DNA from: Candidatus Levyibacteriota bacterium
GTDB taxonomy: Bacteria; Patescibacteriota; Microgenomatia; Levybacterales; UBA12049
Length of the DNA stretch: 64,000 bases
Reading direction: 5' to 3'
Assembly: GCA_963716145.1 (NCBI GenBank)
Contig: OY970292.1
Coordinates: 12,104 to 76,103 of the forward strand
Below are positions 48,023 to 61,687 of this stretch, one piece after another; positions within the stretch are counted from its first letter, which is position 1, and each line of letters begins with the position of its first letter. The position numbers and the translations under genes were made by a program. The notes beneath the pieces are model-generated. The model was given only the letters and a program-made list of their open reading frames with translations, searched no databases and had not been told where the DNA came from.

Positions 48023-49036
48023 TTATTTTGAATGCTTTGCCAGATGCGCTAAGTGTCTCTGCTTTTCCTCTTCGAATTTACTGAAATCGGTTTCATGTTT
48101 CTTAATCAACGTCGCAGCATACTCCGCACCTAGGTAATGGGGCATTACAACATATGAAGCCCCTGCATCATACAACTGCTTGGTCTCTTTTACAAAATGC
48201 GAAAGCACAATTACGACTGCTTTTTTATTAACCTGCCTAATTGTATTTACCAAAATCATACTGGTTTTAAATCCTTGAATTGTAGAAACACATATCTCGA
48301 TTTGGGAAAGATTGATATCCTGAAGGAACTCTATGTCCTGCGCATCACCATATTTATATGGAATCTCCAGTTTTTTCAGTCTTTGTATAGAATCAGGGTT
48401 AAAATCAACAACTAAAAAACTTTTTTCCAATTTTTGGAAAGCTTTAAGAAAATTCTCACCGACTCTACCATAACCAAATAATATAGCATTGTATTTATCC
48501 TCTTTTCCCAAAAGTTGTCTGGGATTATCGAGTTCCAGTAATTTCAATAATTTCTCAACCCTTTTATAAATATTATCCGCGTAATTTAAAAAGTATGTTG
48601 AACCAGCAATAGTAATTAAGCCAACTATGGTAATTATCGATAAAACTTCTTTAGAAATATGTCCAACACTATATCCAAGAGATGCGAGAATAAGTGAAAA
48701 TTCGCTAATCTGAGCAATCGCAAGTCCGGTCATAAATCCCGTTCTTCGTCTGTGTCCGAGAATACTCATAAGGATAATTACAATTACCGGATTACCGATC
48801 AATACAAAGACTGATAGGATTAACGATGGAATAATAATCCGTGAAATATTATCCATAGCCACTTGCGATCCCAAAAGAATGAAAAACAAAACTATGAAAA
48901 AGTCCCGTAGAGGCTTTAAGCGGGAGCCAATTTCGTAAGAAAATGGAGTGAGCGAAAGAGTAACTCCTGCAACTAGCGCACCTATTTCCATAGAGAGACC
49001 AAGTGAATAAAATATAGATGCTAGTCCGAGGCCCAA
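48023..49036 (-). CDS. kefB: Kef-type K+/H+ antiporter, C-terminal membrane segments plus the RCK/TrkA-N domain (frame-shifted from the N-terminal part)
   Basis: ILFGYGRVGENFLKAF...VVDFNP is the Rossmann GxGxxG of TrkA-N. It continues the TM topology of 49021-49716. Confidence 0.7.
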   Translation of the reverse strand: MGLGLASIFYSLGLSMEIGALVAGVTLSLTPFSYEIGSRLKPLRDFFIVLFFILLGSQVAMDNISRIIIPSLILSVFVLIGNPVIVIILMSILGHRRRTGFMTGLAIAQISEFSLILASLGYSVGHISKEVLSIITIVGLITIAGSTYFLNYADNIYKRVEKLLKLLELDNPRQLLGKEDKYNAILFGYGRVGENFLKAFQKLEKSFLVVDFNPDSIQRLKKLEIPYKYGDAQDIEFLQDINLSQIEICVSTIQGFKTSMILVNTIRQVNKKAVVIVLSHFVKETKQLYDAGASYVVMPHYLGAEYAATLIKKHETDFSKFEEEKQRHLAHLAKHSK

Positions 49037-49716
49037 GTGAGCGAGAAGAGCATAAGTACTTCCTGAGATGAGGCTATAAATCGGGTCGCACGAGGGATGA
49101 TATAAATTCCAACAATAAATAGAATAAGGAGGATCACAACTGCCTTTATAAGAAGTAGTCCAATTACCGTTAGCATATCAGCTGAAGGTGACTTTGAAAA
49201 AGACGAAACCAAGAGCAGAATGATGGTTGCGACCACATCTTGTACGATCAAGAACCCTATTGCTATTTTCCCATATAGCTTATTTAGATCTCCCCTGTCT
49301 GAGAGCAACTTCAAGACAATTATGGTGCTACTAAAAGTGAGAGCAATCGCGACATACATCGCGGCAATCCGGTCTATGCCTAAAAATATCGCGATTGAAA
49401 AACCAATAATAGTCGTGAAGATAATCTGACCCAGCCCGCCGAAAAGCGAAACCTTGCCGACTTCCTTAACAACTCTTGGACTGAGATTCAAACCTACTAT
49501 AAATAGTAGGATTGTAATTCCAATTTTTGAAAAGAGCTCAATCTGCTCGCTCGAGTGAAGAATATTAAAAAAGCCAGGGCCTGCTACAATTCCAGCTAAA
49601 ATATAACCGACAACTAGTGGTTGTTTCAACGTACGCATTACAACCGCTGAAGCTGTTGCGATAAATAGCAAGAAGGATATCTCTAAAAATATTTCCATAT
49701 ATTTAGTGTACAACAC
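49021..49716 (-). CDS. kefB: Kef-type monovalent cation:proton antiporter (CPA2), N-terminal membrane domain
   Basis: Na_H_Exchanger family TM pattern (GYILAGIVAGP). It overlaps the next ORF by 16 nt in another frame. Confidence 0.7.
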   Translation of the reverse strand: MLYTKYMEIFLEISFLLFIATASAVVMRTLKQPLVVGYILAGIVAGPGFFNILHSSEQIELFSKIGITILLFIVGLNLSPRVVKEVGKVSLFGGLGQIIFTTIIGFSIAIFLGIDRIAAMYVAIALTFSSTIIVLKLLSDRGDLNKLYGKIAIGFLIVQDVVATIILLLVSSFSKSPSADMLTVIGLLLIKAVVILLILFIVGIYIIPRATRFIASSQEVLMLFSLTWASD

Positions 49717-49749
49717 TTCTGAATTATTTATAAAGACCTCTACTAGAAT

Positions 49750-50214
49750 TTATTCAGTTGGAGAAATATTTTCTTCTGGAGTAGGCTCTGGAGTGGAAGT
49801 AGGCTTCAGTGATGGAGTAGGTGTAGGGGTGGGATCAGGATTATTGGTTGATGTATCGGGTTGCGGAGTTGGCGTAGGAGTCGGAGTCGGTTCAGTAGTA
49901 GGTGTGGCAGTAACAGGAGTCGGGCTAGGACGCCCAGGTGGCCCATAAGTCGCTTCCCCAGCAACTTGTTTTTGTTCGGATGGTGTAGAAGAACTGGAGT
50001 TTTTTGAAAAGTCAAAATCTTTAAGATATGATGTTTTCGCTGATGAGCTTAATGAAAAAAGCGCAATGATAAATACTCCCACTACAATACCGACAATTGC
50101 GAATGCTTTTTTAGAGGATAAAAATTGATCGGCAAAGATAATCTCCTCAACATCCAGAACAGGCAAATCATTGGGCATACCAGTATTTTCTCTATTTTCA
50201 TCCTGCATTTCCAT
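49750..50214 (-). CDS. Membrane-anchored protein with a Pro/Thr-rich extracytoplasmic tail
   Basis: Single TM (AFAIVGIVVGVFIIALFSL) followed by a (TP)n-rich low-complexity tail. The start was set at an internal Met (50214), leaving an intergenic gap. Confidence 0.4.
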   Translation of the reverse strand: MEMQDENRENTGMPNDLPVLDVEEIIFADQFLSSKKAFAIVGIVVGVFIIALFSLSSSAKTSYLKDFDFSKNSSSSTPSEQKQVAGEATYGPPGRPSPTPVTATPTTEPTPTPTPTPQPDTSTNNPDPTPTPTPSLKPTSTPEPTPEENISPTE

Positions 50215-50274
50215 AACTTCATTATATACAAGAATTGCGCATGCAGACAATTGTATTCATAGTATAATAAGCTT

Positions 50275-51216
50275 ATGCTTGCATTCTTCCTCTTTATTAT
50301 TGGCTTAACTTTGTTGCTTCTTGGAAGTACAGGGGTTGTTAAAAACGCTCTTATTATTGCGCGCCTTGCAAAAATTTCACCCCTAGTAGTTGGCGTTACT
50401 CTGGTTGCTATCGGCACGTCGCTTCCTGAGATTACAGTTTCCTTTTTTGGAGGACTTGAAAAAACACACGGACTGGCTTTGGGAAACATAATCGGCTCAA
50501 ATATCGCCAACGTAGGCCTCATCATGGGTGTTTCGCTCTTGATAAAAAGAATCTATATCGGTACCAAAAAAACGCAAAAAAATATGCATTTTACACTTCT
50601 TATTAGTCTCATATTTTTTATTACTTTAATGGTTGGCGGGCTAACAATAATTCATGGGATATTATTTGTGATTTTGGGATTTGCCTTCATAGGATGGCTT
50701 ATCAGGCAAGGACGCAAAGATGAATTGCCTGAAGAATTATTAATTAAGCATCGTAAGGTTAATCCATTGGTTGTGATTATGGTTTTTACTTTATCAATTG
50801 CTGCGATGGTTTTAGGAGGAAAACTGCTTGTAGATGCAGGAATTGCTATCGCAAATATGTTTAAGGTGCCGGAGGCAATTATTGGAATAACAGCATTAGC
50901 TATCGGAACTTCACTTCCAGAACTTGCGATTTCGGTCATTGGCTTAACTAGAGCTTCTAGTCAGCATGAAGATAAATTGATCATCGGAAACATATTGGGC
51001 AGTAATATTTTTAACATTCTTTTCGGAGCAGGAACTTTGGGTCTGTTCGGAACTAAACATTTTAATAGTCAAGCGTCTCTTTTCGCTTTTCTTTTTTTTA
51101 CTCTGATTCTCTGCTTCTTTATTTATCAATTTAGGGGCAAAACAATTCCAAGATATTATGGTGGCTTACTAATTCTTTTTTACGTGATCTATCTCATCAT
51201 TATTTTAAAAATTTAA
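50275..51216 (+). CDS. Ca2+/Na+ (or Ca2+/H+) antiporter, CaCA family (YrbG-like)
   Basis: Two alpha-repeats, each with GTSLPE(I/L). Confidence 0.75.
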   Translation: MLAFFLFIIGLTLLLLGSTGVVKNALIIARLAKISPLVVGVTLVAIGTSLPEITVSFFGGLEKTHGLALGNIIGSNIANVGLIMGVSLLIKRIYIGTKKTQKNMHFTLLISLIFFITLMVGGLTIIHGILFVILGFAFIGWLIRQGRKDELPEELLIKHRKVNPLVVIMVFTLSIAAMVLGGKLLVDAGIAIANMFKVPEAIIGITALAIGTSLPELAISVIGLTRASSQHEDKLIIGNILGSNIFNILFGAGTLGLFGTKHFNSQASLFAFLFFTLILCFFIYQFRGKTIPRYYGGLLILFYVIYLIIILKI

Positions 51217-51247
51217 TGTCCGGAGTGTTATAATCACATAAGTATTT

Positions 51248-52294
51248 ATGTATATTTTAAGGTTCTGGGAAAATTTTAAAAAGTTTGCTGTCCGGATTAC
51301 TAAACCGGATCAGAGGGGAAAACTTGAGCGGTATGCTTTTCCTTTGCTGCTCATTGCCACAGCATTTTTTATAAAAACCGTGCTCCGCTCTTACCTTAAC
51401 TTGGGCACACCATATCTCATGTCAACTTTTATTGTGGTTTTAAGCTCCTGGTATGGAGGACTAGGTGCGGGAATTTCCGCGACAATCCTTGCAGGATTTT
51501 TAAATAACTATCTCTTTTTGGAGCCGCAATTCTCATTTATAGGAACGGGTAATGCAATAGCAACTGTTATTTTTCTCATACAGGGATTTATCATAAGCAT
51601 GATTAGTGAGGCAAAACGATCATCTGATAAGAAAAAAGACGAGTTTATCGCCTTTGCAAGCCATGAACTGAAAAACCCCTTAACAGTTATGAAGATGTCA
51701 AACACTCTTCTTCAAAAAATGGCAAAAGACATAAAAAACAAAAAATTTACTGAATATCTTGTAAAAACCGATAGTTACATTGATAAAACAACAAGCCTCA
51801 TAAACGAGCTTCTGGATTTAACCAAAATAGAGTCCGGCAAATTGAGTCTTCATAAAACAACAGTGGACATAGATAGCCTTGTCAGGGAAATTGTCAAAGA
51901 TCAGCAACTTATTACAAGCACTCATAAAATAACTGTAAAAGGAAAAACCAACAAAGTTATTTTCGCGGATAAAATAAGAATTGAACAAGTTTTGTCCAAT
52001 ATGATAACAAATGCCATAAAGTATTCACCGGGCGAGAAAAAAGTAATTGTGACGATTGAAAATAAAAAAACTTCAGTAACTATTTCTGTACAGGATTTTG
52101 GGATAGGTTTGACCGAGGAAGAACAGAAAAAAGTTTTTGAAAGGTTTTATAGAGCAACAGATACGGGAGCGCAGGGGCTTGGATTGGGTATGTACATCTC
52201 TCAACAGGTTGCGAGTTTGCACGGTGGGAAAATATGGGTCAAAAGCTTATCGGGCAAAGGATCCACTTTTTATTTACAAATGAAAACTGGATAA
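51248..52294 (+). CDS. Sensor histidine kinase (DUF4118 membrane domain + HisKA + HATPase_c)
   Basis: H-box FASHELKNPLT. N-box NAIKYS. G-boxes DFGIGL and GLGLGM. Confidence 0.75.
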   Translation: MYILRFWENFKKFAVRITKPDQRGKLERYAFPLLLIATAFFIKTVLRSYLNLGTPYLMSTFIVVLSSWYGGLGAGISATILAGFLNNYLFLEPQFSFIGTGNAIATVIFLIQGFIISMISEAKRSSDKKKDEFIAFASHELKNPLTVMKMSNTLLQKMAKDIKNKKFTEYLVKTDSYIDKTTSLINELLDLTKIESGKLSLHKTTVDIDSLVREIVKDQQLITSTHKITVKGKTNKVIFADKIRIEQVLSNMITNAIKYSPGEKKVIVTIENKKTSVTISVQDFGIGLTEEEQKKVFERFYRATDTGAQGLGLGMYISQQVASLHGGKIWVKSLSGKGSTFYLQMKTG

Positions 52295-52332
52295 ATTAGA
52301 CTTGATGAAAATTTGTGATAGAATGATAATTC

Positions 52333-54570
52333 ATGAAACAGATCTTGGCGGGAATTTTCGCGATAGCCATAATAGTAAGCCTCATAGCAATCTCCTTTAC
52401 GTTTAATCAGGTAAGCAATGAGCAGGAAAGGCTTGAGAATGATATTCAATACCGCTCATATTTACTTACAAATGGTCTGAAAGAGTCGGTTGAGCCGAAT
52501 TTTATTAATAAGTCAAACTCTTATTTGCAAGATATTGTAAATAGATTTGCAGACAACAAAAGAATTGCAGGTCTTGCTGTAGTTGATAATAATGGATCAA
52601 TTGTGGCTGTTTCATCTAATTTACCAAAACAAATTCCTCAAGTAAAAAAATTGGCAACCGAAGCTCTGGATTCGGATAAGGATAGTAGTGATTTCGCTAG
52701 CTTTGGAAACAACAAAGTATACATATACGTATCCCCTTTGCATGATAAAAAAAGTGTAGTTGGGGCTCTTGCAATTGTACAAAGCGCCGATTACTTAGAC
52801 GCAAGGTTGCTGGAAATCTGGAAAAATAATTTACTCAGACTTTTCATTCAGATATTTCTTATCTCGGTCTCTGTTATTCTAATAATTAGATGGATTATAT
52901 TAGCTCCTATCCGAAATCTAGTTGAGTCCTTAAAGCTTAGCAGAAAAGGAATAGGAGATTATAGTAATAATAAAATACTCAATAATCCTATTTTCAAGCC
53001 ACTCATGCAGGAAGTCGGCAGCATACAAAACAGCCTAATTGAGGCAAGAATAGCAGCGAGTGAGGAAGCAAGGATTCAGCTTGAAAAGCTAGATTCTCCA
53101 TGGACTGCTGAAAGACTAAAGGTTTTTGTTAAAGATATTTTAGGAGATAAAAAAATCTTTGTTGTCTCCAACCGTGAACCTTATATTCATACAAAAAATG
53201 GTAATAAAATAGAGCATCATTTTCCGGCAAGCGGAATGGTCACAGCGCTTGAACCGATAATGCAGGCAACCGGCGGGATGTGGATTGCTCATGGAAGCGG
53301 AAGCGCTGACAAACTGGTTGTTGATAAAAATGACAAGCTCCGTGTTCCGCCAGATGAACCAAAATACACCCTGAAAAGGGTCTGGCTTACAGCTGATGAA
53401 GAAAAGGGATATTATGAGGGATTTTCCAATGAGGGAATTTGGCCGCTTTGCCATATGACCCACACCCGGCCAATATTCAGAAAAGAAAATTGGGATGAGT
53501 ATGTAAAAGTGAATGAGAAATTTGCAGAGAGCTTGCTTAAAGAAATTAAAAATGAGAAAGATCCAATTATATTTATTCAGGATTTTCATTTCATGCTTTT
53601 GCCGCGTTTGATCAAGGACAAAAGACCTGACGCTACAATCGGGATGTTCTGGCATATTCCCTGGCCAAATGCTGAAAATTTCAGTATTTGCCCATGGAGG
53701 AAGGAAATGCTTGATGGGATGATGGGCGCTGATATATTGGGATTTCACACGCAGCTTCACTGCAATAATTTTATTACAACAGTCAGCCGCGAACTTGAAG
53801 CACTGGTTGATATGGAGCAATTTACGGTTACCAAGAATAATCACGCGACTTATGTCAAGCCATTTCCTATCAGTATTGCATTTACAAAAAGCTCTGTTTC
53901 GAAAGGACGGGTAGAGGAAGAAGCGGAAAAAAGTAAAAAAATATTAAAGAATCTGGGAATAAAAACAAAATACTTGGGAGTCGGAGTTGACAGGCTTGAT
54001 TACACAAAAGGAATACTTGAGAGGCTTAAAGCGGTCGAGTTATTTTTGATAAAATACCCGTCTTTCATTGGAGAATTTACATTTCTACAGATCTCTGCCC
54101 CCAGTAGAACAACAGTCAAGGAATATCAGGATTTTTATATAAAGGTGCAGGCTGAAACTGAAAGGATAAACAATCTTTATAAGAAAAATGGTTGGAAACC
54201 AATCATATTTCTTAACCAATATCATGCTCATAACTATATTTATTCTATTTACCGCGCCTCTGATTTCTGTCTGGTTACATCACTTCATGACGGGATGAAT
54301 CTGGTTGCAAAAGAATTTGTGGCCTCAAGAGATGATGAAAAAGGAGTTCTTATCCTTAGTCAATTCGCCGGAGCGTCACGCGAGTTGCATGATGCTTTGA
54401 TAATTAATCCTTATAATGGTGAACAAACAGCGGATGCAATCTATACTGCCCTGACTATGAAGCCAACCGAGCAAAAAAGGCGTATGCAGAGAATGCGGGA
54501 CATTGTAAAAAGCCACAATGTCTACCGCTGGTCCGCAGAATTTATAAAAACAATGGTTGATTTGGGATAA
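52333..54570 (+). CDS. otsA: Alpha,alpha-trehalose-phosphate synthase (GT20, OtsA-like) fused to an N-terminal 2-TM sensor/HAMP-like module
   Basis: GT20 blocks FVVSNREPY, GGMW, FIQDFHFMLLP and MFWHIPWP. Residues 1-250 carry TM1, a periplasmic domain of about 140 aa, TM2 and a linker. Confidence 0.75.
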   Translation: MKQILAGIFAIAIIVSLIAISFTFNQVSNEQERLENDIQYRSYLLTNGLKESVEPNFINKSNSYLQDIVNRFADNKRIAGLAVVDNNGSIVAVSSNLPKQIPQVKKLATEALDSDKDSSDFASFGNNKVYIYVSPLHDKKSVVGALAIVQSADYLDARLLEIWKNNLLRLFIQIFLISVSVILIIRWIILAPIRNLVESLKLSRKGIGDYSNNKILNNPIFKPLMQEVGSIQNSLIEARIAASEEARIQLEKLDSPWTAERLKVFVKDILGDKKIFVVSNREPYIHTKNGNKIEHHFPASGMVTALEPIMQATGGMWIAHGSGSADKLVVDKNDKLRVPPDEPKYTLKRVWLTADEEKGYYEGFSNEGIWPLCHMTHTRPIFRKENWDEYVKVNEKFAESLLKEIKNEKDPIIFIQDFHFMLLPRLIKDKRPDATIGMFWHIPWPNAENFSICPWRKEMLDGMMGADILGFHTQLHCNNFITTVSRELEALVDMEQFTVTKNNHATYVKPFPISIAFTKSSVSKGRVEEEAEKSKKILKNLGIKTKYLGVGVDRLDYTKGILERLKAVELFLIKYPSFIGEFTFLQISAPSRTTVKEYQDFYIKVQAETERINNLYKKNGWKPIIFLNQYHAHNYIYSIYRASDFCLVTSLHDGMNLVAKEFVASRDDEKGVLILSQFAGASRELHDALIINPYNGEQTADAIYTALTMKPTEQKRRMQRMRDIVKSHNVYRWSAEFIKTMVDLG

Positions 54571-55726
54571 TATATTTATGAAAATTGCAATAATCACATC
54601 AAACACTCAAAGTATAACGCCTTCTGCCAAAAAGGGGACTGAGATTTTTTCTAATATCCTGATCAATGAACTGTCAAAAAATGCTGTGAGGCATAATTTG
54701 GATATTACTGCTTTCGCGTCCGGTGACTCAAAGCTTCCTGTTAAAATTGAAAGTATTACCCAAAAATCCACATCTCAAAACACGGATATTCCGGATGAGA
54801 AAAAGATTATTTTTGAATTGGCGCTTTTGTCGGAGGCTTTTTCCAGACAAAATGAGTTTGATCTGTACCATGTCAATATCGGCGATGGTGATATAGCTTT
54901 GCCTTTTGCAAAATTTGTCAAAAAACCTATTATTATTACGATTCACAATACAAAAACTGAAAATTACGTCAAAAAATATTTTTCACATTTCAGCAATCTT
55001 CCAAATGTTTTTTTCGTCTCAATCAGCGATGCCCAGAGAAAGTATTTCCCAAAGTTGAATTATCTTGACACAATTTATCATGGTGTGGATATAAATAATA
55101 ACTTTAAGTTTAGTTCTATAGGAGGAAATGCGATCATGTGGGCAGGACGCGCGATTCCCCAAAAGGGAATGGATGCGGCAATTGATATCGCGAGCAGCTG
55201 CAAAAAACAATTGAAAATGTTTGGGATATCAAATGATGAATATAATAAATGGCTTTCAGAGTTTGTTATTGAGAAAATAAAACTTCTAGATGGTATCACT
55301 ATCACTTTTAATAAAGACAGACTTGAGTTGGCAAAAGAATACGGTACGAGTAAGCTATTTCTTTTTCCACTTCAATGGGAGGAGCCGTTTGGACTTACAG
55401 TGATTGAATCAATGGCCTGCGGAACGCCTGTAATTGCATATGGCAGAGGTTCAATGCCTGAGATTATAGAAGACGGTAAGACTGGTTTTATCGTTAATCC
55501 TTCAGCAGATGATATCCGCGGAAATTGGGTAGTTAAAAAAACAGGAATTGAAGGAATGATTGAAGCAGTTGAGAAATTATATGCAATGTCTGAAAGTGAA
55601 TATATGCAAATGCGAAGAAATTGTAGACAGCTGGTAGAGAAAAAATTTGCAGTACGTCTTATGTCTGAAAACTATGTAAAAATATATAATAAAACTATTA
55701 ATGCAATGAACAGTGTTCTTAAATAA
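54557..55726 (+). CDS. Glycosyltransferase family 4 (GT-B, Glycos_transf_1)
   Basis: The EEPFGLTVIESMACGTPVIA...GKTGF motif (E-x7-E) is typical of GT4. Confidence 0.7.
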   Translation: MIWDNIFMKIAIITSNTQSITPSAKKGTEIFSNILINELSKNAVRHNLDITAFASGDSKLPVKIESITQKSTSQNTDIPDEKKIIFELALLSEAFSRQNEFDLYHVNIGDGDIALPFAKFVKKPIIITIHNTKTENYVKKYFSHFSNLPNVFFVSISDAQRKYFPKLNYLDTIYHGVDINNNFKFSSIGGNAIMWAGRAIPQKGMDAAIDIASSCKKQLKMFGISNDEYNKWLSEFVIEKIKLLDGITITFNKDRLELAKEYGTSKLFLFPLQWEEPFGLTVIESMACGTPVIAYGRGSMPEIIEDGKTGFIVNPSADDIRGNWVVKKTGIEGMIEAVEKLYAMSESEYMQMRRNCRQLVEKKFAVRLMSENYVKIYNKTINAMNSVLK

Positions 55727-55729
55727 GCT

Positions 55730-56338
55730 ATGGCAAAAGATCATTTCAAAACCCATTTTCATCTTCCTGGTGAAGTTGACTGGAATTTCAATATTCTTTT
55801 TGATGACCAGCCGCAAGTTGGGGAAATGGTCCGCAAGTATGATGAATTAATAAGTCACAAAGGTCTTTATCCCCCGATTCCTTCAAAATGGCTGCATATC
55901 ACGTTATTACGTGTTGGATTGACTACGCAGTATTCAGAAAAAGAAATGCTTGATGTTGTTGAAAAACTTGTTCCTATTCTTGCAAATTTTGAAATGCCTG
56001 ATTTGATTCTCGGACCATGGTGGGTGTGGAGAGGAAATCCGGTACTTCACGTAACGCCTGATGATCAGCTCGAAGAGCTATATGACATTATTACCGCGAC
56101 TATTAAATCCATTGTTGGTGATAGGATTGCCCCGCTTCCAAGACTCATTCCGCATCTAACTCTTGCCTATAACCGTGACTACAACCAAGAAAAAGAGGTC
56201 CATCAACAATTATCCAAAAAATGGATTGCTCCTGTTTTATTTAGAGCTAACAATTTATCTCTAGTCAGACAAGAGCAAAAAGCTCCCTTTTATAGCTGGG
56301 AGCTAGTTAAAAGTATTGGAATAGGGAAAAACTCATAA
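55730..56338 (+). CDS. 2H phosphoesterase superfamily protein (LigT-like)
   Basis: Two H-x-T-x motifs (HITL and HLTL) at the expected spacing. Confidence 0.5.
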   Translation: MAKDHFKTHFHLPGEVDWNFNILFDDQPQVGEMVRKYDELISHKGLYPPIPSKWLHITLLRVGLTTQYSEKEMLDVVEKLVPILANFEMPDLILGPWWVWRGNPVLHVTPDDQLEELYDIITATIKSIVGDRIAPLPRLIPHLTLAYNRDYNQEKEVHQQLSKKWIAPVLFRANNLSLVRQEQKAPFYSWELVKSIGIGKNS

Positions 56339-56359
56339 CATTTGTGGTAGAACATTATT

Positions 56360-57826
56360 ATGCTGTATGTAAAGACGTTATTTAAAAACAACGGCATATT
56401 GTCTTTATTATTAGTATTTTTTATTTGCCTGTGTTTTTTTACAGCTTATTCACTTCTCTCAATCGTTCGTCATGATAATTACCAATCATATGGATATGAC
56501 CTGGGTATAAATGACCAAACTGTGTGGAGATACTCTCATTTTCAGGCACCGGTTACAACAATTGATCCTTTTCCTGACAAAACAAAATTAGTAGAACATG
56601 TAGAAGTGATATACGCCCTAATCTCACCGTTCTATTGGATTTGGGAAAGCCGTAAGATGCTCCTTGTTCTGGAGCCTGCTTTTTTCTGTACATCCGGAAT
56701 TTTTGTTTATTTACTTGCCCGAAAAAAGAAGCTGTCATTTATAATTGGCATAGCTTTACTTATTGGCTATCTGGGATTTTACGGAGCGCAAAATGCTATC
56801 TGGACAGATGTGCATAGTGCCAGTTTTGCAGCAGCCTTTCTGATGGGATTTATTTACTTTCTTGAAACCAAAAAGAAAGTACCCTCCGTTATATTTTTCC
56901 TCTTGGCAATAACCGCAAAAGAAAATATCGGGCTTCTGGCATTTCTTATCGCTTTTCTTTTTTTCCTGAGGGAGCGCACAAAATTTCTTGCATATTTAAT
57001 GGGAATATCCATCGCTTACGTCTGCTTTATTTTCTTTATTTATTTTCCGCATATTATTCACTTTAAATATCTCTACCAAAATAGTGGTGGCTTGTTCTCC
57101 AACCTCAATCCATTGAGCTTTGCTGATACGGCTGAGAAAAGACAGGTAATCTGGTATTCATTATTATCGTATGGCTTCCTGCCATTATTTTCACCGCTAT
57201 ACCTTATCCCCTCAATCGGAGATCTGGCAACATATAATGTATTAGCCAATCAACTCCCCGGAGCGCAGGGACTTTTTGGACAATACAGAATTACTCTAAC
57301 ACCACTTCTTACCTGGGCGACAATGACCACTCTGGTGCGTTATAAATGGCTTAATAAGTGGCAGATTGGAGCCTATCTTATACTTTGTACGCTTCTTGTT
57401 CAGTATCTTTTGCACCTGCCTCTCAGCTATTTGACAAAGCTTTCATTTTGGCAGGAGCCCTCAGGCGTAAAAAATATTACAAAAGTAATCAGAAATTATC
57501 TACCGAGAAATGCATCAGTTGTCGCGCAAAATAATATAGTTCCGCACATTAGCCATAGGGATAAAATTTACTCTCTTTATCCTGAAATGAAGCATTTTAC
57601 AATTAATTCTCCCTGTGGAAAGGCTGATTGCGACTGGTTCCGCTGGTATGGTAACCCTGAATATCTCTTTGTTGATACTTCAGCTGAGTGGGATGCGAGG
57701 CACTTGCTGATAGACCGGGATAAATTTATAAAGGGGATTGAGAATATAGAAAAAGCAGGAGTTGTTAAAAAGTACAAGCAGGAGGGTAGTGCGGTTCTAT
57801 ATAAAGTTCTGAACAAAACGTTGTAA
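56360..57826 (+). CDS. DUF2079-family polytopic membrane protein (putative GT-C-like glycosyltransferase)
   Basis: RHDNYQSYGYDLGINDQTVW is the N-terminal signature of DUF2079. About 12 TM plus a C-terminal soluble domain. Confidence 0.55.
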   Translation: MLYVKTLFKNNGILSLLLVFFICLCFFTAYSLLSIVRHDNYQSYGYDLGINDQTVWRYSHFQAPVTTIDPFPDKTKLVEHVEVIYALISPFYWIWESRKMLLVLEPAFFCTSGIFVYLLARKKKLSFIIGIALLIGYLGFYGAQNAIWTDVHSASFAAAFLMGFIYFLETKKKVPSVIFFLLAITAKENIGLLAFLIAFLFFLRERTKFLAYLMGISIAYVCFIFFIYFPHIIHFKYLYQNSGGLFSNLNPLSFADTAEKRQVIWYSLLSYGFLPLFSPLYLIPSIGDLATYNVLANQLPGAQGLFGQYRITLTPLLTWATMTTLVRYKWLNKWQIGAYLILCTLLVQYLLHLPLSYLTKLSFWQEPSGVKNITKVIRNYLPRNASVVAQNNIVPHISHRDKIYSLYPEMKHFTINSPCGKADCDWFRWYGNPEYLFVDTSAEWDARHLLIDRDKFIKGIENIEKAGVVKKYKQEGSAVLYKVLNKTL

Positions 57827-58042: not shown

Positions 58043-59173
58043 ATGTCAATAGAACAAGGTTCACCCACAAGCGTAGACATCCCTAGAGCTCCGGAGAGGC
58101 CTGATGGCGGAATATTTGGCAATCTTTTTGTAACCGATCATCCGGATAATCCGGCCGAAAGCAAGGATAAATTGGTAGAGCTGTATAGCGGTCTTAGGGA
58201 TACGCGGATCAAATCTGTCCGTTATGATTGGCGCTGGAATAAGATTCAGCCGGGAAATGTGAGATGGAATGAGCCCCAGCTGAAGCATTATCAAACAGCA
58301 AGAGAAGCAATGAATGAGGCAGGACTGGATGCTCCCACAATTATTCTTTCAAGTCCGCCGGAATGGGCAGTTGAGATGTATAAAAGGGGAGATAAGGAAG
58401 GATTCAATGCTGCATATAGAGCTTATGTTACAGCAGTTAAGGACACCCTTGATAAAGGAGGTGGAAAGCCTATTGAGAGAGTGCAGGTATTAAACGAATT
58501 AAATAACAAAGTCTATAATCCTATCGCTACGGAAGACATTCCTGAGTTATGCGATATAACACGGGATGTCTTCGGAGCTGACGTAAAGCTGGTCGCGACA
58601 GTGCTCGCGACAAACCTGCATGACAATAAGGCGGGAAGACAAATTGGCCAGCCAATCGGAGATTACCTGGATCAGCATGGAGAAGTGCTCAGGAATAATT
58701 TTGATGTAATTGGGGTTGACTACTATCCTGCTACATGGCATCTGCCCATCGGAGAGGCAGTAAAAGAAACATGGACCAGAAGAAGAGAGCAAATGCCGGA
58801 AACAAATAAATTCTTTCGTTCAATGGCGGGTAATATGACTTTACTAAGAAGTGTATATGACAAAATTTCAGAATGGGGGGTTGATTACGAACTTGGAGAA
58901 GTGGGCCGTCCGTCCAAGGCAATTTTGGGTGGGGAAAAATATCAAGCACTGTTTTTTGAGGCGTTTTTTGATGGATATGAGGAAATGCATGCGGATATGG
59001 AAAGGAACGGGAAGAAGCTTCCCTCGGGAGTTGATCTATATATGCTCAGGGATGAGCCGGCCCGTACTGCTTTGAGGCATGTTCCGGGCTTGAGGGAGCA
59101 AAAATGGGGACTATTTACCAGTGCGGGAGAGCCAAAAGATTCTGTGGCTTTATTTCAAAGAGATAGTCAATAA
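58043..59173 (+). CDS. Putative clan GH-A (GH5-like) glycoside hydrolase, cytoplasmic, GC-richer than its surroundings
   Basis: QVLNELN (NEx acid/base) and DYELGEVG (nucleophile Glu) in a TIM-barrel-like pattern. No signal peptide. Confidence 0.35.
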   Translation: MSIEQGSPTSVDIPRAPERPDGGIFGNLFVTDHPDNPAESKDKLVELYSGLRDTRIKSVRYDWRWNKIQPGNVRWNEPQLKHYQTAREAMNEAGLDAPTIILSSPPEWAVEMYKRGDKEGFNAAYRAYVTAVKDTLDKGGGKPIERVQVLNELNNKVYNPIATEDIPELCDITRDVFGADVKLVATVLATNLHDNKAGRQIGQPIGDYLDQHGEVLRNNFDVIGVDYYPATWHLPIGEAVKETWTRRREQMPETNKFFRSMAGNMTLLRSVYDKISEWGVDYELGEVGRPSKAILGGEKYQALFFEAFFDGYEEMHADMERNGKKLPSGVDLYMLRDEPARTALRHVPGLREQKWGLFTSAGEPKDSVALFQRDSQ

Positions 59174-59217
59174 TCCTACTGTTTGTCCGGCATTTTGTTA
59201 TCTAGTATAATAATCAT

Positions 59218-59976
59218 GTGAGCAATGTTTTTCTCTCCGTTGTTATCCCTTGCTTTGACGAAATGGCAAATCTGCAAAAGGGTGTTCTGGATCACGTCTC
59301 GCGTTTTTTGGATGAAAAAGATTTTTCCTACGAAGTAATCATAGTTGATGACGGATCGACTGACGGAAGCATGGAATTTATCGAAAAGTATATAAAAAGA
59401 AACGTCAAAATTTCTCTTACCAAAAATCCCCATTATGGAAAAGCCGGAGCCGTAACAACCGGTATGCTTGAATCTCATGGACGCTACCGCCTTTTTACCG
59501 ACATGGATCAGGCGACCCCGATTGAGGAGCTAGATAAATTACTACCATTTCTTCAAACTGGAGAATATGATATCGCAATCGGTTCCAGAAAAGACAAAAG
59601 AAAAGGTGCGCCCGCAATCAGGTTATTTGTCTCAAGAAGCGCAATAGTTCTACGAAAGTACGCGATCGGTATTAAGGAAATCTCAGATACTCAGTGCGGC
59701 TTCAAACTTTTTACAAATGAAGCAGCAGACACACTTTTTACTAAATACAAAAAGTTTAATAATAATTTTACTGAAATAACCGGTGCAGCAGTGACATTCG
59801 GTTCTGATATAGAAATATTGTATATGGCGCAAAAAATGGGCTATAAGATAAAAGAAGTTCCGGTTAACTGGCTTTTTGTTGAGTCGCGAAGAGTGAGCCC
59901 GATTAAAGATTCGATACAAGGCGTAATAGATCTGGTCAAAATTAAAAAGAACGCAATGGCGGGAAAGTACGATTAA
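59218..59976 (+). CDS. GT2 polyprenyl-phosphate glycosyltransferase (Dpm1/ArnC/GtrB-like)
   Basis: VVIPCFDE...IIVDDGSTDGS...DMD...GSR are the GT2 DXD and catalytic motifs. 252 aa with no TM, typical of soluble CPR Dpm1-like enzymes. Confidence 0.75.
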   Translation: MSNVFLSVVIPCFDEMANLQKGVLDHVSRFLDEKDFSYEVIIVDDGSTDGSMEFIEKYIKRNVKISLTKNPHYGKAGAVTTGMLESHGRYRLFTDMDQATPIEELDKLLPFLQTGEYDIAIGSRKDKRKGAPAIRLFVSRSAIVLRKYAIGIKEISDTQCGFKLFTNEAADTLFTKYKKFNNNFTEITGAAVTFGSDIEILYMAQKMGYKIKEVPVNWLFVESRRVSPIKDSIQGVIDLVKIKKNAMAGKYD

Positions 59977-60003
59977 AATTTCAAATATCCAATATCAAAT
60001 TTC
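59976..60003. repeat. Heptamer-periodic repeat (AAATTTC/AAATATC) immediately 5' of and overlapping the 60006 start codon
   Basis: aaatttc aaatatc caatatc aaatttc aaATGac. The cca internal repeat ends in the identical tttcaaatgac. Confidence 0.45.
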
Positions 60004-60005
60004 AA

Positions 60006-61220
60006 ATGACAAAAAGTTTTAAATTGAACATTTCAATAGGGATATATTTTGTTGTTATTTTTTTCCTATTTCTATATTCTTTTACGCAAATAGATTTAAG
60101 TCTTACATTTTCAAGGATCACGGTTTTGCGAAATCTAGTAACCTCTTTTCAGCAAATAGGTTACTTCAATCGTCCGCTTTCAATGTATATTTACATAGGT
60201 CTTCTTATTTTGCTATATGGTTTTTATTTTTATTTCCTCAAACTATCGCTTGAGAAAAAGATTAGCAAAAAAACTGTTTGGAAAATATTGATAGCTTCTT
60301 CTGCGATTTTGGTCTTTTCCTATAATGCTTTTTCTTACGATTTATTCAATTATATTTTTGACGCCAAGATATTTACTCACTATCATTTAAATCCTTATGT
60401 TCATAAAGCGCTGGATTTTCCCGGAGATCCAATGCTTTCTTTTATGCGCTGGACTCATAGAGTCTATCCTTATGGTCCTATTTGGCTTCTTCTGACAGTC
60501 CCATTATCTTTTATTGGTTTTAATTTTTTTCTTCCCACCTTTTTTATGTTTAAAATTTTGATGGCAGCCAGTTTTCTTGGAAGCTTGTGTTTTATCGGGA
60601 AAATTCTGCAAAAAACAACGCCCAATAAAGAAATTTTTGGTTTAGTCTTTTTCGGATTAAATCCATTGGTAATTATCGAATCTTTGGTCAGCGGGCATCT
60701 GGATATCGTGATGGTTTTCTTTGCCCTCTGGGCAACTCATAAATTAGTAGAAAAAAAATACGCGTTACCATTTTTGTTATTAGCTCTTTCAACTGGGATT
60801 AAGTTCGGGACAATTTTTCTGCTTCCTATTTTCATCTATATTTTATTTTTGCAAAAGAAGAAAAAATCAGTTGATTGGGATTTGATTTTCAAGACTTGCA
60901 CCATAGCAATGGTTATTACTGTTTTTCTATCATCAACTTACAGCGGTAATTTTCAACCTTGGTATCTTGTTTTACCTTTAGCTTTTGCAGTGTTTATATC
61001 CAGACGATATTACATTTTCATTCCTTGCATTATTATTTCATTTTTTGCTTTGCTCATGTATCTACCTTTCTTATATCTCGGAAATTGGGATAAGCCTGTG
61101 CCGCAGATTCTGTGGAATTTACAGATTAGTTCAATGATATTATCATTTATTGCAGTTTTGGTTTATTATTTAAACCTAAGCCATCCATTCGACAAGCTCA
61201 GGACGCGAAAGCACAAATAA
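60006..61220 (+). CDS. Polytopic membrane protein, putative GT-C glycosyltransferase (DUF2029/GT87-like)
   Basis: About 11 TM. Its 3' end (codons for HPFDKLRTRKHK) is formed by a copy of the 16511 repeat element. Confidence 0.4.
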   Translation: MTKSFKLNISIGIYFVVIFFLFLYSFTQIDLSLTFSRITVLRNLVTSFQQIGYFNRPLSMYIYIGLLILLYGFYFYFLKLSLEKKISKKTVWKILIASSAILVFSYNAFSYDLFNYIFDAKIFTHYHLNPYVHKALDFPGDPMLSFMRWTHRVYPYGPIWLLLTVPLSFIGFNFFLPTFFMFKILMAASFLGSLCFIGKILQKTTPNKEIFGLVFFGLNPLVIIESLVSGHLDIVMVFFALWATHKLVEKKYALPFLLLALSTGIKFGTIFLLPIFIYILFLQKKKKSVDWDLIFKTCTIAMVITVFLSSTYSGNFQPWYLVLPLAFAVFISRRYYIFIPCIIISFFALLMYLPFLYLGNWDKPVPQILWNLQISSMILSFIAVLVYYLNLSHPFDKLRTRKHK

Positions 61221-61250
61221 AACGCATATATTATTGTATAATACAGCTGC

Positions 61251-61631
61251 ATGAATTTTATTAAAAAGTATTCATTTTTCATTTTCTTGATTGGAATTAT
61301 TGTACTCTACCTTTTCACGCGTCTTTCTAGTATTTTGTCTCTTCCGATCTTTACAGATGAAGCTATCTATGTCCGCTGGTCGCAAATAGCAAGCAATGAT
61401 GCTAACTGGCGCTTTATCTCACTAACTGATGGCAAGCAGCCTATGTTTGTCTGGATTGCGATGATACTTCTAAAATTTATTAAAGAGCCTCTGCTTGCGG
61501 GAAGACTGGTATCAGTTGGAGCAGGATTTGCATCATTAGTTGGCATATTTTTTCTGACGAGTGAGATCTTTAACCCTTCGGCCCACTCAGGGCAAGAAAG
61601 CTCGGTATTCTGGCGAGTTCGCTCTACGTAA
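61251..61631 (+). CDS. ArnT/PMT-like (GT39/GT83) glycosyltransferase, N-terminal part (frame-shifted)
   Basis: IFTDEAIYVRW...DGKQPMFVW is the canonical GT-C N-terminal DE motif region. The frame breaks at a CCC run near 61571. Confidence 0.6.
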   Translation: MNFIKKYSFFIFLIGIIVLYLFTRLSSILSLPIFTDEAIYVRWSQIASNDANWRFISLTDGKQPMFVWIAMILLKFIKEPLLAGRLVSVGAGFASLVGIFFLTSEIFNPSAHSGQESSVFWRVRST

Positions 61632-61687
61632 TTTTTCCTTTCGCGCTGGTTTATGACAGGCTCGCGTTATATGATTCACTTGTTGCG

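Follow-up and report, generated by a model that had tools for sequence, protein, structure and literature searches.

The locus analyzed here raises two questions, namely whether a trehalose-6-phosphate synthase can be built as a membrane receptor, and whether the genes lying next to it share its function. In the window (i.e., the whole 64-kb stretch of DNA under analysis), a first-pass annotation had described five consecutive genes on the plus strand, whose open reading frames all have the coordinates it gave, and had interpreted them as one signal-gated module for the synthesis of trehalose or a glycolipid. The second gene encodes a protein in which a first transmembrane (TM) segment, a Cache domain, a second TM segment, a HAMP domain, and a linker precede a GT20 glycosyltransferase domain (Table 1), an architecture that was encountered in more than 100 independent loci. 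The topology is thus that of a receptor, as had been proposed, and unlike that of a cytoplasmic OtsA, with two TM segments flanking a Cache fold and the HAMP and GT20 domains following. We regard this fusion as a receptor-type trehalose-6-phosphate synthase gated through its Cache and HAMP domains, a reading to which we assign a probability of about 0.62 and in which the gating is the part that we infer.

Table 1. Features of the synthase locus in window coordinates; residue numbers refer to the encoded proteins.
Feature	Coordinates	Strand	Description and evidence
Orphan histidine kinase gene	51248..52294	+	DUF4118 + HisKA + HATPase_c (Pfam); H-box SHEL at residue 138
Extended -10 box TGaTAGAAT	52316..52324	+	Ends 8 nt before the GT20 ATG
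Receptor-type trehalose-6-phosphate synthase gene	52333..54570	+	745 aa; TM1, sCache, TM2, HAMP, linker, GT20; ORF list, homologues, AlphaFold model
TM1, residues 4-22	52342..52398	+	Kyte-Doolittle 19-residue window 2.85; within long N-terminal helix H2-59 (model)
Single-Cache (PDC) sensor, WalK-like, extracytoplasmic, residues 23-166	52399..52830	+	AlphaFold and Foldseek
TM2, residues 167-185	52831..52887	+	Kyte-Doolittle 2.65; continuous helix H153-204 (model)
HAMP, residues 186-237 (AS1 from P192, connector G206, AS2 with E227)	52888..53043	+	hhalign profile-profile
Conserved output linker, residues 238-273 (AS2 helical extension, then 'LDSPWTAERL' helix into GT20 strand beta-1)	53044..53151	+	
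GT20 (OtsA-type) domain, residues 274-741	53152..54555	+	Pfam PF00982 Glyco_transf_20, E 1.2e-123
GT4 extended -10 box TGgGATAAT	54563-54571	+	Ends 6 nt before the ATG
GT4 glycosyltransferase gene	54578..55726	+	382 aa from ATG 54578; Pfam Glycos_transf_1; TeGSS-related
2H phosphoesterase gene	55730..56338	+	2_5_RNA_ligase2 / LigT, Pfam E 2e-11
DUF2079 polytopic membrane protein gene	56360..57826	+	Pfam E 2e-33

The catalytic half of the protein bears out its original assignment to the trehalose-6-phosphate synthases, as the domain is complete and the key OtsA residues are conserved. It matched the Glyco_transf_20 profile with 413.7 bits (cut-off 32.5) over positions 2–471 of 473, and the solved structures of soluble OtsA and Tps1 (E. 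coli 1gz5/1uqt, Mycolicibacterium 5jij, fungal Tps1 5hut) aligned end to end with its GT-B domain (E ~1e-80). All 11 residues checked in E. coli OtsA (R9, G22, Y76, W85, D130, H154, R262, K267, R300, D361, and E369) are kept in the fusion (in the same order R281, G301, Y361, W370, D417, H441, R554, K559, R592, D653, and E661) and also in eight of its relatives, and they cover the UDP-glucose donor site together with the glucose-6-phosphate acceptor site, which supports the prediction of a catalytically intact domain. The OtsA models scored far above the glucosylglycerol-phosphate synthase model (283.4 bits) on the fusion, and the NCBIfam OtsA equivalog cut-offs were missed (TIGR02400 trehalose_OtsA: 438.8 bits vs. 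564.85; PRK14501: 499.2 vs. 634). Since the OtsA residues are kept and a sugar-phosphate phosphatase gene usually follows, an arrangement comparable to otsBA, the product is expected to be trehalose-6-phosphate within the OtsA/OtsB route. In contrast to the known enzymes, which are cytoplasmic, begin at the first beta-strand and lack any membrane or sensor part, the fusion carries 273 extra residues ahead of GT20 and remains below the equivalog cut-offs.

Approximately 144 of these residues lie between the two TM segments; a K/R-rich stretch follows TM2, and W163 and Q173 around it are invariant across phyla. In the AlphaFold model (mean pLDDT 81.9 for the full-length protein and 80 for the N-terminal half), the region is composed of a long helix and an alpha/beta core with five strands. 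This agrees with the PDC layout, which comprises an extended helix at the N-terminus, an antiparallel sheet of five strands with helices on its flanks, and a last helix that continues into TM2. The question of a Cache- or CHASE-like fold, left by the first-pass annotation, was answered in favor of Cache by Foldseek, which aligned the sensor with the extracellular domains of WalK (5is1, 4ywz, and 7dud; E ~4e-8, TM 0.66–0.73), gave a probability of 1.00 against the Cache domains of WalK, KinD, and chemoreceptors, and aligned the N-terminus with the full-length WalK model 9a5d (E 2e-11 over 262 columns). The Pfam Cache models stayed below their thresholds (Cache_WalK, 25.1 bits vs. 27; dCache_1, 26.1 vs. 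45; sCache_3_2, 17.7 vs. 28.4), and Cache_WalK was matched at E ≤ 0.05 by 14 of the 34 family members. The TM positions and the presumably cytoplasmic substrates of GT20 indicate that the sensor faces outward. The domain of about 140 residues that had been called periplasmic does lie between the TM segments, and is better termed extracytoplasmic because the organisms are Patescibacteria. Within the Patescibacteria clade, D113, Y130, P135, H137, G144, Q150, and Y154 are invariant, of which D113, Y130, H137, Q150, and Y154 are clade-specific polar or aromatic residues, and D113, Y130, and H137 are candidates for a putative membrane-distal ligand pocket. As D113, Y130, and H137 are not conserved across phyla, a ligand shared by all fusion sensors seems unlikely.

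The segment behind TM2, first described as a HAMP-like linker, proved to be a genuine HAMP. When the family segment was compared by hhalign with seven E. coli HAMPs and Af1503, a probability of 90.7% was obtained (P 1.3e-6, 51 columns), and the score of 34.2 clearly exceeded those of column shuffles (n = 100; 9.5 ± 2.2, maximum 16.9; z ~11), the reversed profile (8.1), and other segments (≤ 12.2). Pfam HAMP (PF00672) gave no match in the window fusion and one match among the 34 family members (E 0.044), and separately matched P0170 (E 0.0011). The peptide quoted in the first-pass annotation (APIRNLVESLKLSRKG, residues 191–206) is the AS1 helix. P192 and E227 do not vary between phyla, while in a 21-sequence cross-phylum alignment R204 is nearly invariant and G206 is the majority residue, the latter being invariant in the Patescibacteria clade. 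The connector and AS2 were weakly modelled in the monomer (pLDDT < 50 at 206–232 and 242–253). The output linker is the best conserved part of the N-terminal half, with A238, A242, E245, A246, W257, T258, R261, L262, and L270 invariant between Patescibacteria and Acidobacteriota, and its helix 259–270 was modelled confidently (block pLDDT 87–88). It is absent from soluble OtsA, whose alignments begin at fusion residue 271–275, and from the sensor-GCS2 relative P0196. A diverged TM-Cache-TM-HAMP copy (27% identity) is fused to GCS2, with the similarity stopping exactly after AS2, and such recombination at the HAMP end is the behavior of a portable signaling input.

More than 120 full-length homologues were recovered with 61–77% identity and 100% coverage. 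The sensor profile matched 1,167 representative clusters (564 of them at E ≤ 1e-10), and in 80 metagenome loci the sensor ORFs of sufficient length ran on into GT20 without exception. The taxa involved are at least Patescibacteria (Microgenomates) and Acidobacteriota, the latter with more than 120 clusters of equal length and layout to the window fusion, and the sensors of the two phyla are only ~31–34% identical. The architecture, for which a survey of CPR genomes had been suggested earlier, is not CPR-specific, being also abundant in Acidobacteriota. Public annotations of its members always read just "trehalose-6-phosphate synthase" and no paper on a Cache-HAMP-GT20 receptor-type synthase was found in the literature; the design is widespread and apparently undescribed. 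It is hardly conceivable that the gene is an artefact, be it a chimeric assembly or a signal peptide and disordered linker placed on an ordinary OtsA, two explanations already considered in the first-pass annotation. Two independently assembled contigs, one from NCBI (1.14 Mb) and one from Logan, contain the identical gene, and its composition shows no break. A chimera is also contradicted by the full-length homologues, which recur in more than 100 independent assemblies that derive from many samples and belong to two phyla. Likewise, a disordered linker does not fit an N-terminal half that folds confidently as a sensor (mean pLDDT 80), contains another TM segment after the first, and shows conserved motifs.

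Among known systems, WalK (YycG) and related Cache-HAMP histidine kinases share the order and fold of the input (TM1, single Cache, TM2, HAMP), WalK being the best structural match by Foldseek for the whole 272-residue N-terminus at a sequence identity of only 13–18%. They differ in their output, which in the fusion is a metabolic glycosyltransferase instead of DHp/CA, without phosphotransfer or a response regulator. Control of a fused catalytic domain by a TM sensor and HAMP is found in Cache/HAMP diguanylate cyclases and PP2C phosphatases, and HAMP-linked class III adenylate cyclases (e.g., mycobacterial Rv3645 and Rv1319c) possess a conserved cyclase transducer element. The fusion would follow the same receptor-enzyme logic via a short conserved helical transducer, the 'EEAR...LDSPWTAERL' linker seemingly taking the place of the cyclase element. 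The output domains of these systems produce second messengers or act on signaling proteins, whereas that of the fusion delivers a bulk metabolite, an osmolyte precursor; likewise, the cyclase active site is located at the dimer interface and that of the fusion within one subunit. Plant class I TPS1 carries an autoinhibitory N-terminal extension, from which it follows that GT20 catalysis can be controlled from the N-terminus, although this soluble extension has no sequence relationship to the one analyzed here and is not a membrane sensor.

Given a Cache domain, a HAMP domain, and an intact GT20 domain, the link between envelope signals and sugar synthesis within one protein, as suggested initially, remains the most reasonable reading. 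The fusion would act as a dimer whose HAMP packing would be altered by a stimulus acting on the Cache domain or within the membrane, candidates being osmotic or envelope cues and small molecules, perhaps from a host. This change could be relayed through the helical extension of AS2 and the 'LDSPWTAERL' helix to GT20 strand beta-1, which ends at R281, the equivalent of the phosphate-binding R9 of OtsA, so that catalysis might be switched on or off post-translationally, without a kinase, a regulator, or a transcription step. Gating of this kind, if true, could let an external signal switch the production of sugar with no involvement of gene regulation. Two lines of evidence favor signaling over anchoring, i.e., the invariance of P192, E227, W257, T258, R261, and L262 across phyla despite the low identity of the sensors, and the fusion of the same input module to GCS2 with its boundary exactly after AS2.

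The main competitor of receptor-type gating, which we consider rather unlikely, is a membrane tether, whereby the N-terminal module has lost its signaling role and now serves purely as a membrane anchor for OtsA. Such anchoring might, for example, pass trehalose or its phosphate on to an exporter or to a process in the envelope, or bring OtsA together with other proteins. The Cache domain of WalK docks YycH/YycI, which provides an analogy, and membrane transporters recur near the fusion (a Na/Ca exchanger in the window and L002, SemiSWEET in L002 and L022, and a P-type ATPase in five loci). Anchoring would also be compatible with the sub-threshold Pfam HAMP and Cache models, the putative pocket residues that vary across phyla, and an active site contained in one subunit, for which a gating route is not obvious; unlike for HAMP-controlled cyclases and kinases, we know of no precedent for gating such a site by dimer rearrangement. 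A mere tether, however, needs neither a folded Cache and a HAMP with invariant P192 and E227 nor an invariant output linker, and it explains neither the strength of the HAMP profile-profile match nor the fusion of the input module to another enzyme with a junction exactly at the end of HAMP.

A further interpretation, that the five genes constitute a co-regulated module whose signal-controlled product is a glycolipid or glycan built on trehalose, is very improbable and was already largely refuted by a census of 100 loci holding the fusion. The genes do share one strand with gaps of 3–38 nt and no predicted terminator between them, the GT4 gene is a genuine recurrent neighbor, and one further locus (L032) also has DUF2079 next to the fusion. 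Against this, DUF2079 was near the fusion in only 2/100 loci, the histidine kinase family in 3/100 with differing architectures and orientations, and the 2H phosphoesterase had a homologue in none of the other loci. The kinase is therefore adjacent to the fusion, not a conserved partner, and a two-component system formed by both was rejected, as no response regulator was found in the 64-kb window (tblastn with KdpE, best E 0.98) and no receiver domain in the fusion (Pfam). The kinase (hexamer end at 51234), GT20, and GT4 genes are each preceded by an extended -10 box at leaderless spacing, a genome-wide pattern (boxes 4–16 nt upstream of the start codons in 19/55 genes vs. 2.4 ± 1.5 at random positions), so that GT20 would have a transcription start apart from that of the kinase gene and a single operon is not demonstrable. 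Moreover, DUF2079 fits more plausibly into the envelope-glycosylation cluster downstream of it (GT2, GT87/MptA_B-like, and other polytopic membrane proteins), and the usual context elsewhere is a different one. OtsB was present in 32 loci (as the next gene downstream, in the same orientation, in 30), HAD/S6PP phosphatases in seven, and IMPase in five, and a phosphatase adjoined the fusion in 42 of the 70 loci with enough downstream sequence; trehalase-like GH occurred in six loci, TreT in four, and glucokinase and SemiSWEET were also found nearby. This dominant context is that of soluble trehalose metabolism, and nothing points to the glycolipid product once envisaged. The kinase, 2H, and DUF2079 genes lie beside the fusion by coincidence rather than in a dedicated module, and of the proposed co-occurrence only the link to GT4 survives. 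The lack of an adjacent OtsB, correctly recorded in the first-pass annotation, extends to the whole 64-kb window, in which no OtsB, HAD, or IMPase-type phosphatase was detectable by tblastn, but is untypical for the family.

The GT4 gene is the sole gene of the block that is recurrently linked to the fusion, being located immediately downstream in six loci of divergent lineages (the window, L024, L026, L027, L038, and L056). Its reported overlap with the fusion (54557/54570) is explained by a GT4 start assigned to the first TTG; ortholog alignments and the public 382-aa gene call place the start at the ATG, leaving a 7-nt gap. The best PDB match was TeGSS, a glucosylsucrose synthase (7fg9/8x3q; E 4e-44, residues 1–311), and the donor/UDP-binding residues R179, K184, and E-x7-E are kept. 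The name glucosylsucrose synthase was rejected for this protein, since Trp10 and Tyr18, which contact sucrose and are catalytic in TeGSS, are replaced by Thr10 and Lys18 at positions that vary among the GT4 orthologues. TeGSS elongates sucrose, a non-reducing disaccharide, and its gene (tll1591) adjoins the sucrose-phosphate synthase gene tll1590 in Thermosynechococcus (PMC9909042). The window pair resembles it in that a disaccharide-phosphate synthase gene adjoins a TeGSS-family GT4 with conserved UDP-binding residues, and differs in that the synthase is a GT20 (trehalose-6-phosphate) enzyme and W10 and Y18 are replaced.

A TeGSS-like GT4 is thus a recurrent alternative partner where the phosphatase is not adjacent, and by analogy it may, speculatively, glucosylate trehalose or its phosphate. 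In these six loci, the end product could then be a glucosylated trehalose oligosaccharide or phosphate in place of free trehalose, with the receptor gating the first committed step, a tentative proposal that we hold to be possible but doubtful. It would agree with the sucrose-extending activity and gene neighborhood of TeGSS, with the conserved donor residues combined with changes at positions 10 and 18, as expected for another acceptor, with the linkage being retained among sensors 41–64% identical to that of the window and contigs of 36–52% GC, and with the GT4 gene occupying the exact position of OtsB, the GT4 and a phosphatase never co-occurring in the available flanks, several of which are short, so that a phosphatase may sit further off. 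On the other hand, it draws on analogy alone, the acceptor specificity of a GT4 being unreadable from sequence, the variation of positions 10 and 18 among the orthologues weakens it, and the GT4 gene has its own promoter-like box. The 2H gene behind it, for which PDB contained no relative by sequence, matched PF13563 with 44.5 bits (cut-off 27) and has the motifs HIT56 and HLT142; the 3-nt gap between both genes (55726/55730) is real, and they are probably co-transcribed.

The membrane-linked trehalose-6-phosphate synthase of the window is a protein of 745 aa in which a transmembrane segment (TM1), a Cache domain, a second transmembrane segment (TM2), a HAMP domain and a linker precede a GT20 catalytic domain. 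The first-pass annotation had read this fusion as a receptor joined to OtsA, a reading that is supported and that can be extended to a large family over several phyla. It had also placed the fusion in a five-gene signal-gated module with a histidine kinase (HK), a GT4 glycosyltransferase, a 2H phosphoesterase and a DUF2079 protein. The positions of these five ORFs, all on the forward strand, are exactly as it gave them, with the exception of the reported overlap at 54557/54570, which arose from taking the first TTG as the start of the GT4 gene; orthologue alignments and the public gene call place this start 7 nt past the GT20 stop codon.

Coordinates of the features discussed (positions of the whole stretch unless another locus is named)
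Feature	Position	Strand	Description
Kef-type cation/proton antiporter	48023-49716	-	Na_H_Exchanger + TrkA_N; ORFs 49716-49021 and 49036-48023, 16-nt overlap
Gly/Val-rich ORF	49706-49948	+	artefactual
Small membrane-anchored protein	49750-50250	-	long Pro/Thr-rich low-complexity tail (PTPTPTP...)
Na/Ca exchanger	50275-51216
HK	51248-52294	+	Pfam DUF4118 + HisKA + HATPase_c
-10 box of the GT20 gene	52316-52324		TGaTAGAAT
Fusion	52333-54570	+	Pfam Glyco_transf_20, residues 274-741, E 1.2e-123
-10 box of GT4	54563-54571		TGgGATAAT
GT4	54578 (ATG start)	+	Pfam Glycos_transf_1; 382 aa in the public gene call
2H phosphoesterase	55730-56338	+	PF13563; motifs HIT56 and HLT142
DUF2079 protein	56360-57826	+	Pfam DUF2079
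Envelope-glycosylation run	58043-64000	+	weak GH53-like, GT2 (DPM1-like), GT87/MptA_B-family polytopic, more polytopic membrane proteins, PTPS_related
Na/Ca exchanger of locus L002	L002:13348-14295
Split fusion copy	L019:9911-11904		two ORFs
P0196, GCS2 fusion	L106:3373-5445		690 aa, 6.9-kb contig

The first 273 residues constitute a true transmembrane sensor-transducer. Residues 4-22 and 167-185 are strongly hydrophobic and enclose about 144 residues, and a K/R-rich stretch follows the second of these segments. An AlphaFold model of residues 1-272, built from 24 family sequences (mean pLDDT 80), consists of a long N-terminal helix, an alpha-beta core with a helix and five strands, and a long helix running through TM2. 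When this model was compared with the PDB using Foldseek, the top match was 9a5d, a model of full-length WalK (E 2e-11 over 262 aligned columns). Next came the crystallised extracellular Cache domain of Staphylococcus aureus WalK (5is1, 4ywz, 7dud; E ~4e-8, TM 0.66-0.73) and then KinD and chemoreceptor Cache domains. The Pfam Cache models remain slightly below threshold in the fusion (Cache_WalK 25.1 bits vs. 27), so that the Cache assignment rests on fold and topology. Candidate pocket residues are conserved within clades only.

The HAMP-like linker of the first-pass annotation was borne out by a profile-profile comparison, which was run because standard sequence tests were weak: the Pfam HAMP model matches just one of 34 family members, the family profile (residues 186-274) reaches the Af1503 HAMP among PDB sequences at E 0.93, too weak on its own, and the probabilities given by hhalign against single HAMP sequences (33% and 15%) are likewise too weak alone. 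Against an alignment of the HAMP domains of Escherichia coli K-12 Tap, Tar, Tsr, EnvZ, CpxA, PhoQ and NarX together with Af1503, hhalign placed residues 186-237 in the correct register across 51 columns, with a probability of 90.7%, a P of 1.3e-6 and a score of 34.2; by comparison, the reversed alignment scored 8.1, 100 column shuffles 9.5 ± 2.2 (max 16.9) and five other protein segments at most 12.2. P192, at the start of the first HAMP helix (AS1), and E227, in the second (AS2), are invariant between phyla. Past the HAMP domain the AS2 helix runs on and is interrupted at "LDSP", before a short, confidently modelled helix (259-270) connects to GT20 strand beta-1; between residues 206 and 253 the model is of low confidence. 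The linker residues A238, A242, E245, A246, W257, T258, R261, L262 and L270 form the best-conserved part of the N-terminal half, whereas soluble OtsA proteins are without this linker and their alignments to the fusion start at residue 271-275.

Judged by its residues, the catalytic domain appears to be a complete OtsA: solved OtsA/Tps1 structures match it along the entire length (E ~1e-80), and it keeps E. coli OtsA R9, G22, Y76, W85, D130, H154, R262, K267, R300, D361 and E369, among them all three that bind the glucose-6-phosphate phosphate group. OtsA models give it much higher scores than glucosylglycerol-phosphate synthase does, although the NCBIfam equivalog cut-offs are not reached.

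The fusion is a large family, neither an artefact nor specific to CPR. More than 120 cluster representatives match the window protein over its full length (61-77% identity, 100% coverage), the named ones being Levy-, Davies- and Gottesmanbacteria, Microgenomates and Patescibacteria. For a distant member of high GC, more than 120 relatives 750-770 aa long are on record under the names Bryobacteraceae, Acidobacteriia or Acidobacteriota. The sensor profile, used in an exhaustive HMM search, matched 1,167 representative clusters, of which 564 reach E ≤ 1e-10 and 131 reach E ≤ 1e-30; among the top 150 matches, 48 extend beyond the sensor and 34 of these run on into GT20, while most of the other 14 are cut off at a contig end and have short tails. 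With the N-terminal 272 residues as query, a word-indexed search gave just fragments of this family at contig ends and no further architecture. Scanning metagenomes with sensor-specific patterns based on nine complete sequences yielded 80 loci (sensor identity 31-64%, GC 33-62%), and GT20 follows the sensor in every ORF of sufficient length. The source annotation of the homologues is "trehalose-6-phosphate synthase" and nothing more, and no account of a Cache-, HAMP- or membrane-linked OtsA was found in the open-access literature, where absence is not proof. Some members deviate in form or label. One sensor-profile match (P0170, 913 aa) has ~170 additional residues ahead of the sensor, and the copy in L019, a locus labelled Saccharibacteria, matches from residue 140 only and is probably degraded. 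Five low-GC contigs (L009, L010, L012, L015, L017) whose fusions share 62-67% identity with the window protein bear titles such as 'uncultured Gammaproteobacteria', 'Candidatus Sulfotelmatobacter' and 'Saccharimonadales'; these titles probably stem from errors in the binning or naming of Microgenomates-like genomes.

The same input module also occurs with another enzyme. In P0196, a single cluster, a TM-Cache-TM-HAMP module with 27% identity to that of the fusion is joined to a GCS2 carboxylate-amine ligase domain (glutamate-cysteine ligase family 2, PF04107, E 2.7e-9). Likeness to the OtsA family ends exactly past HAMP AS2 and the OtsA-specific linker is missing; signalling input modules typically recombine at the HAMP boundary. 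The two modules are too diverged for P0196 to be a recent chimera, and by its predicted domains P0196 would be a second 'receptor metabolic enzyme'.

In order to define the genomic context of the fusion, every ORF within 3.5 kb of it at 100 loci was clustered without prior assumptions and the cluster representatives were annotated. This context is trehalose metabolism rather than a five-gene module. An OtsB-type Trehalose_PPase occurs at 32 of the 100 loci (in 30 as the next gene downstream, on the same strand), a HAD S6PP/Hydrolase_3 phosphatase at seven, an IMPase-family phosphatase at five (immediately downstream in four), an MGH1/trehalase-like hydrolase at six, TreT at four and a GT4 resembling the glucosylsucrose synthase TeGSS at seven (immediately downstream in six, the window among them); glucokinase and SemiSWEET were found in individual loci. 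Where at least 800 nt of downstream sequence were available, 42 of 70 loci have a phosphatase near the fusion. The slot after the fusion (loci L015-L105) displays non-orthologous displacement among the OtsB, HAD S6PP/Hydrolase_3 and IMPase types; the IMPase-family protein would be an unusual candidate trehalose-6-phosphate phosphatase. The proposed module did not recur: the HK family was present at three loci, with differing architectures and orientations, DUF2079 at two (the window and L032) and the 2H phosphoesterase nowhere outside the window. HK signalling to the fusion was dropped, there being no receiver domain, no response regulator in the window and no conserved adjacency. The 2H phosphoesterase was rejected as an OtsB substitute because it accompanies the fusion at no other locus and because the substrates of 2H enzymes are cyclic phosphodiesters. 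Downstream of DUF2079 come a GH-like gene, a GT2, a GT87/MptA_B-like gene and other polytopic membrane proteins, and DUF2079 probably belongs with this envelope-glycosylation cluster, a better fit than the block around the fusion.

Within the block, GT4 is the sole real partner of the fusion. Its orthologues (E 1e-120 to 1e-135) directly follow the fusion in L024, L026, L027 and L056, a truncated copy lies at the end of L038, and another orthologue is found ~3 kb from the fusion in L070; the sensors of the GT4-bearing loci are 39-64% identical to that of the window and their contig GC is 36-53%. The three phosphatase types, TreT and trehalase are absent from these loci and from the whole 64-kb window, and the sets of GT4 and phosphatase loci do not overlap. 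The nearest solved relative is TeGSS (7fg9/8x3q, E 4e-44), which adds alpha-1,2-glucose to sucrose and whose gene adjoins that of a sucrose-phosphate synthase (PMC9909042). GT4 keeps the UDP-binding residues R179, K184 and E-x7-E, whereas the TeGSS sucrose contacts W10 and Y18 are not conserved and both positions vary among orthologues, so that glucosyl-trehalose as the product is an attractive analogy and no more. Lys18 was discarded as a phosphate binder for trehalose-6-phosphate, as this position varies among orthologues.

The mechanism that we propose builds on the observed domain order and topology, on the intact HAMP signature positions, the invariant linker and the intact active site of OtsA, and on the genomic association with the trehalose pathway. 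The fusion would dimerise via HAMP, whose state would shift in response to a stimulus acting in the membrane or on the Cache domain; this change may be relayed through the AS2 extension and the "LDSPWTAERL" helix to GT20 strand beta-1, which ends in R281 (equivalent to the glucose-6-phosphate ligand R9 of OtsA), and catalysis could thereby be gated. As the GT20 active site lies within one subunit and not at a dimer interface, how HAMP could gate it is a mechanistic question. The main rival, in which the N-terminal module is a passive membrane tether, seems to us unlikely. The nearest functional analogues of the fusion are HAMP-linked adenylate cyclases with a transducer element, while plant TPS1 is an analogue for N-terminal control of a GT20 enzyme. 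For the joint reading, that Cache-HAMP-OtsA is a true one-protein transmembrane switch, that the GCS2 fusion points to a wider class and that the switch in the window feeds a TeGSS-like GT4, we estimate a probability of roughly 0.4.

If this joint reading is true, an external or envelope cue would allosterically start the synthesis of trehalose-6-phosphate, an osmoprotectant precursor, within seconds and without a kinase, second messenger or transcription step, and the GT4 of the window lineage would make a glucosyl-trehalose solute. Trehalose synthesis by OtsA is usually described as being under the control of transcription (in E. coli, for example, by RpoS and osmotic induction) or of substrate supply, whereas a receptor wired to OtsA would represent a different principle, coupling outside sensing to bulk protective metabolite flux in a single polypeptide. 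Receptor enzymes are already known; new here is a metabolic glycosyltransferase as the output, by which a GT-B glycosyltransferase would join the HAMP outputs. A wider, unrecognised class of 'receptor metabolic enzymes' would then exist in Patescibacteria, Acidobacteriota and other phyla. A sensor domain lies hidden in thousands of database entries named simply "trehalose-6-phosphate synthase". Such a design would suit both tiny genomes with few regulators (Patescibacteria) and soil Acidobacteriota under wetting/drying cycles; cultured Acidobacteriota should allow a direct test of the hypothesis, and the family could provide an easy enzymatic read-out for Cache/HAMP signalling.

The 55 window genes of at least 150 aa were scanned for a strict -10-like hexamer with its end 4-16 nt upstream of the start codon. 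It was present in 19 of them (mode 6 nt), compared with 2.4 ± 1.5 (max 7) at random positions, while an SD-like motif precedes just five of the 55, a marked leaderless-type promoter signature for this genome. Examples are the genes at 50275, 51248, 52333, 54578, 58043, 59218 and 46008. By this leaderless criterion, the Na/Ca exchanger gene, HK, GT20 and GT4 are each predicted to have their own transcript start, with 2H probably co-transcribed with GT4, and the signature may be of use for locating the heads of transcription units in this lineage.

A Na/Ca exchanger lies near the fusion in both the window and L002 (56% identical), and P-type cation ATPases do so in five loci (L035, L041, L059, L062, L070); these ion-transport genes may reflect a loose osmotic/ion-homeostasis neighbourhood, or chance. 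In the L008-L014 clade (fusions 65-68% identical to that of the window), with neither a phosphatase nor GT4 near the fusion, a divergent YgjP-like metallopeptidase gene flanks it in seven loci and an HlyD-like/RND efflux set lies downstream in five. The small Pro/Thr-tailed protein of the window has no Pfam match in the public gene call, and the artefactual ORF lies on the strand opposite to it. The Kef-type antiporter, two genes in the public record as well, could be a frameshift/pseudogene, a real split or a case of recoding.
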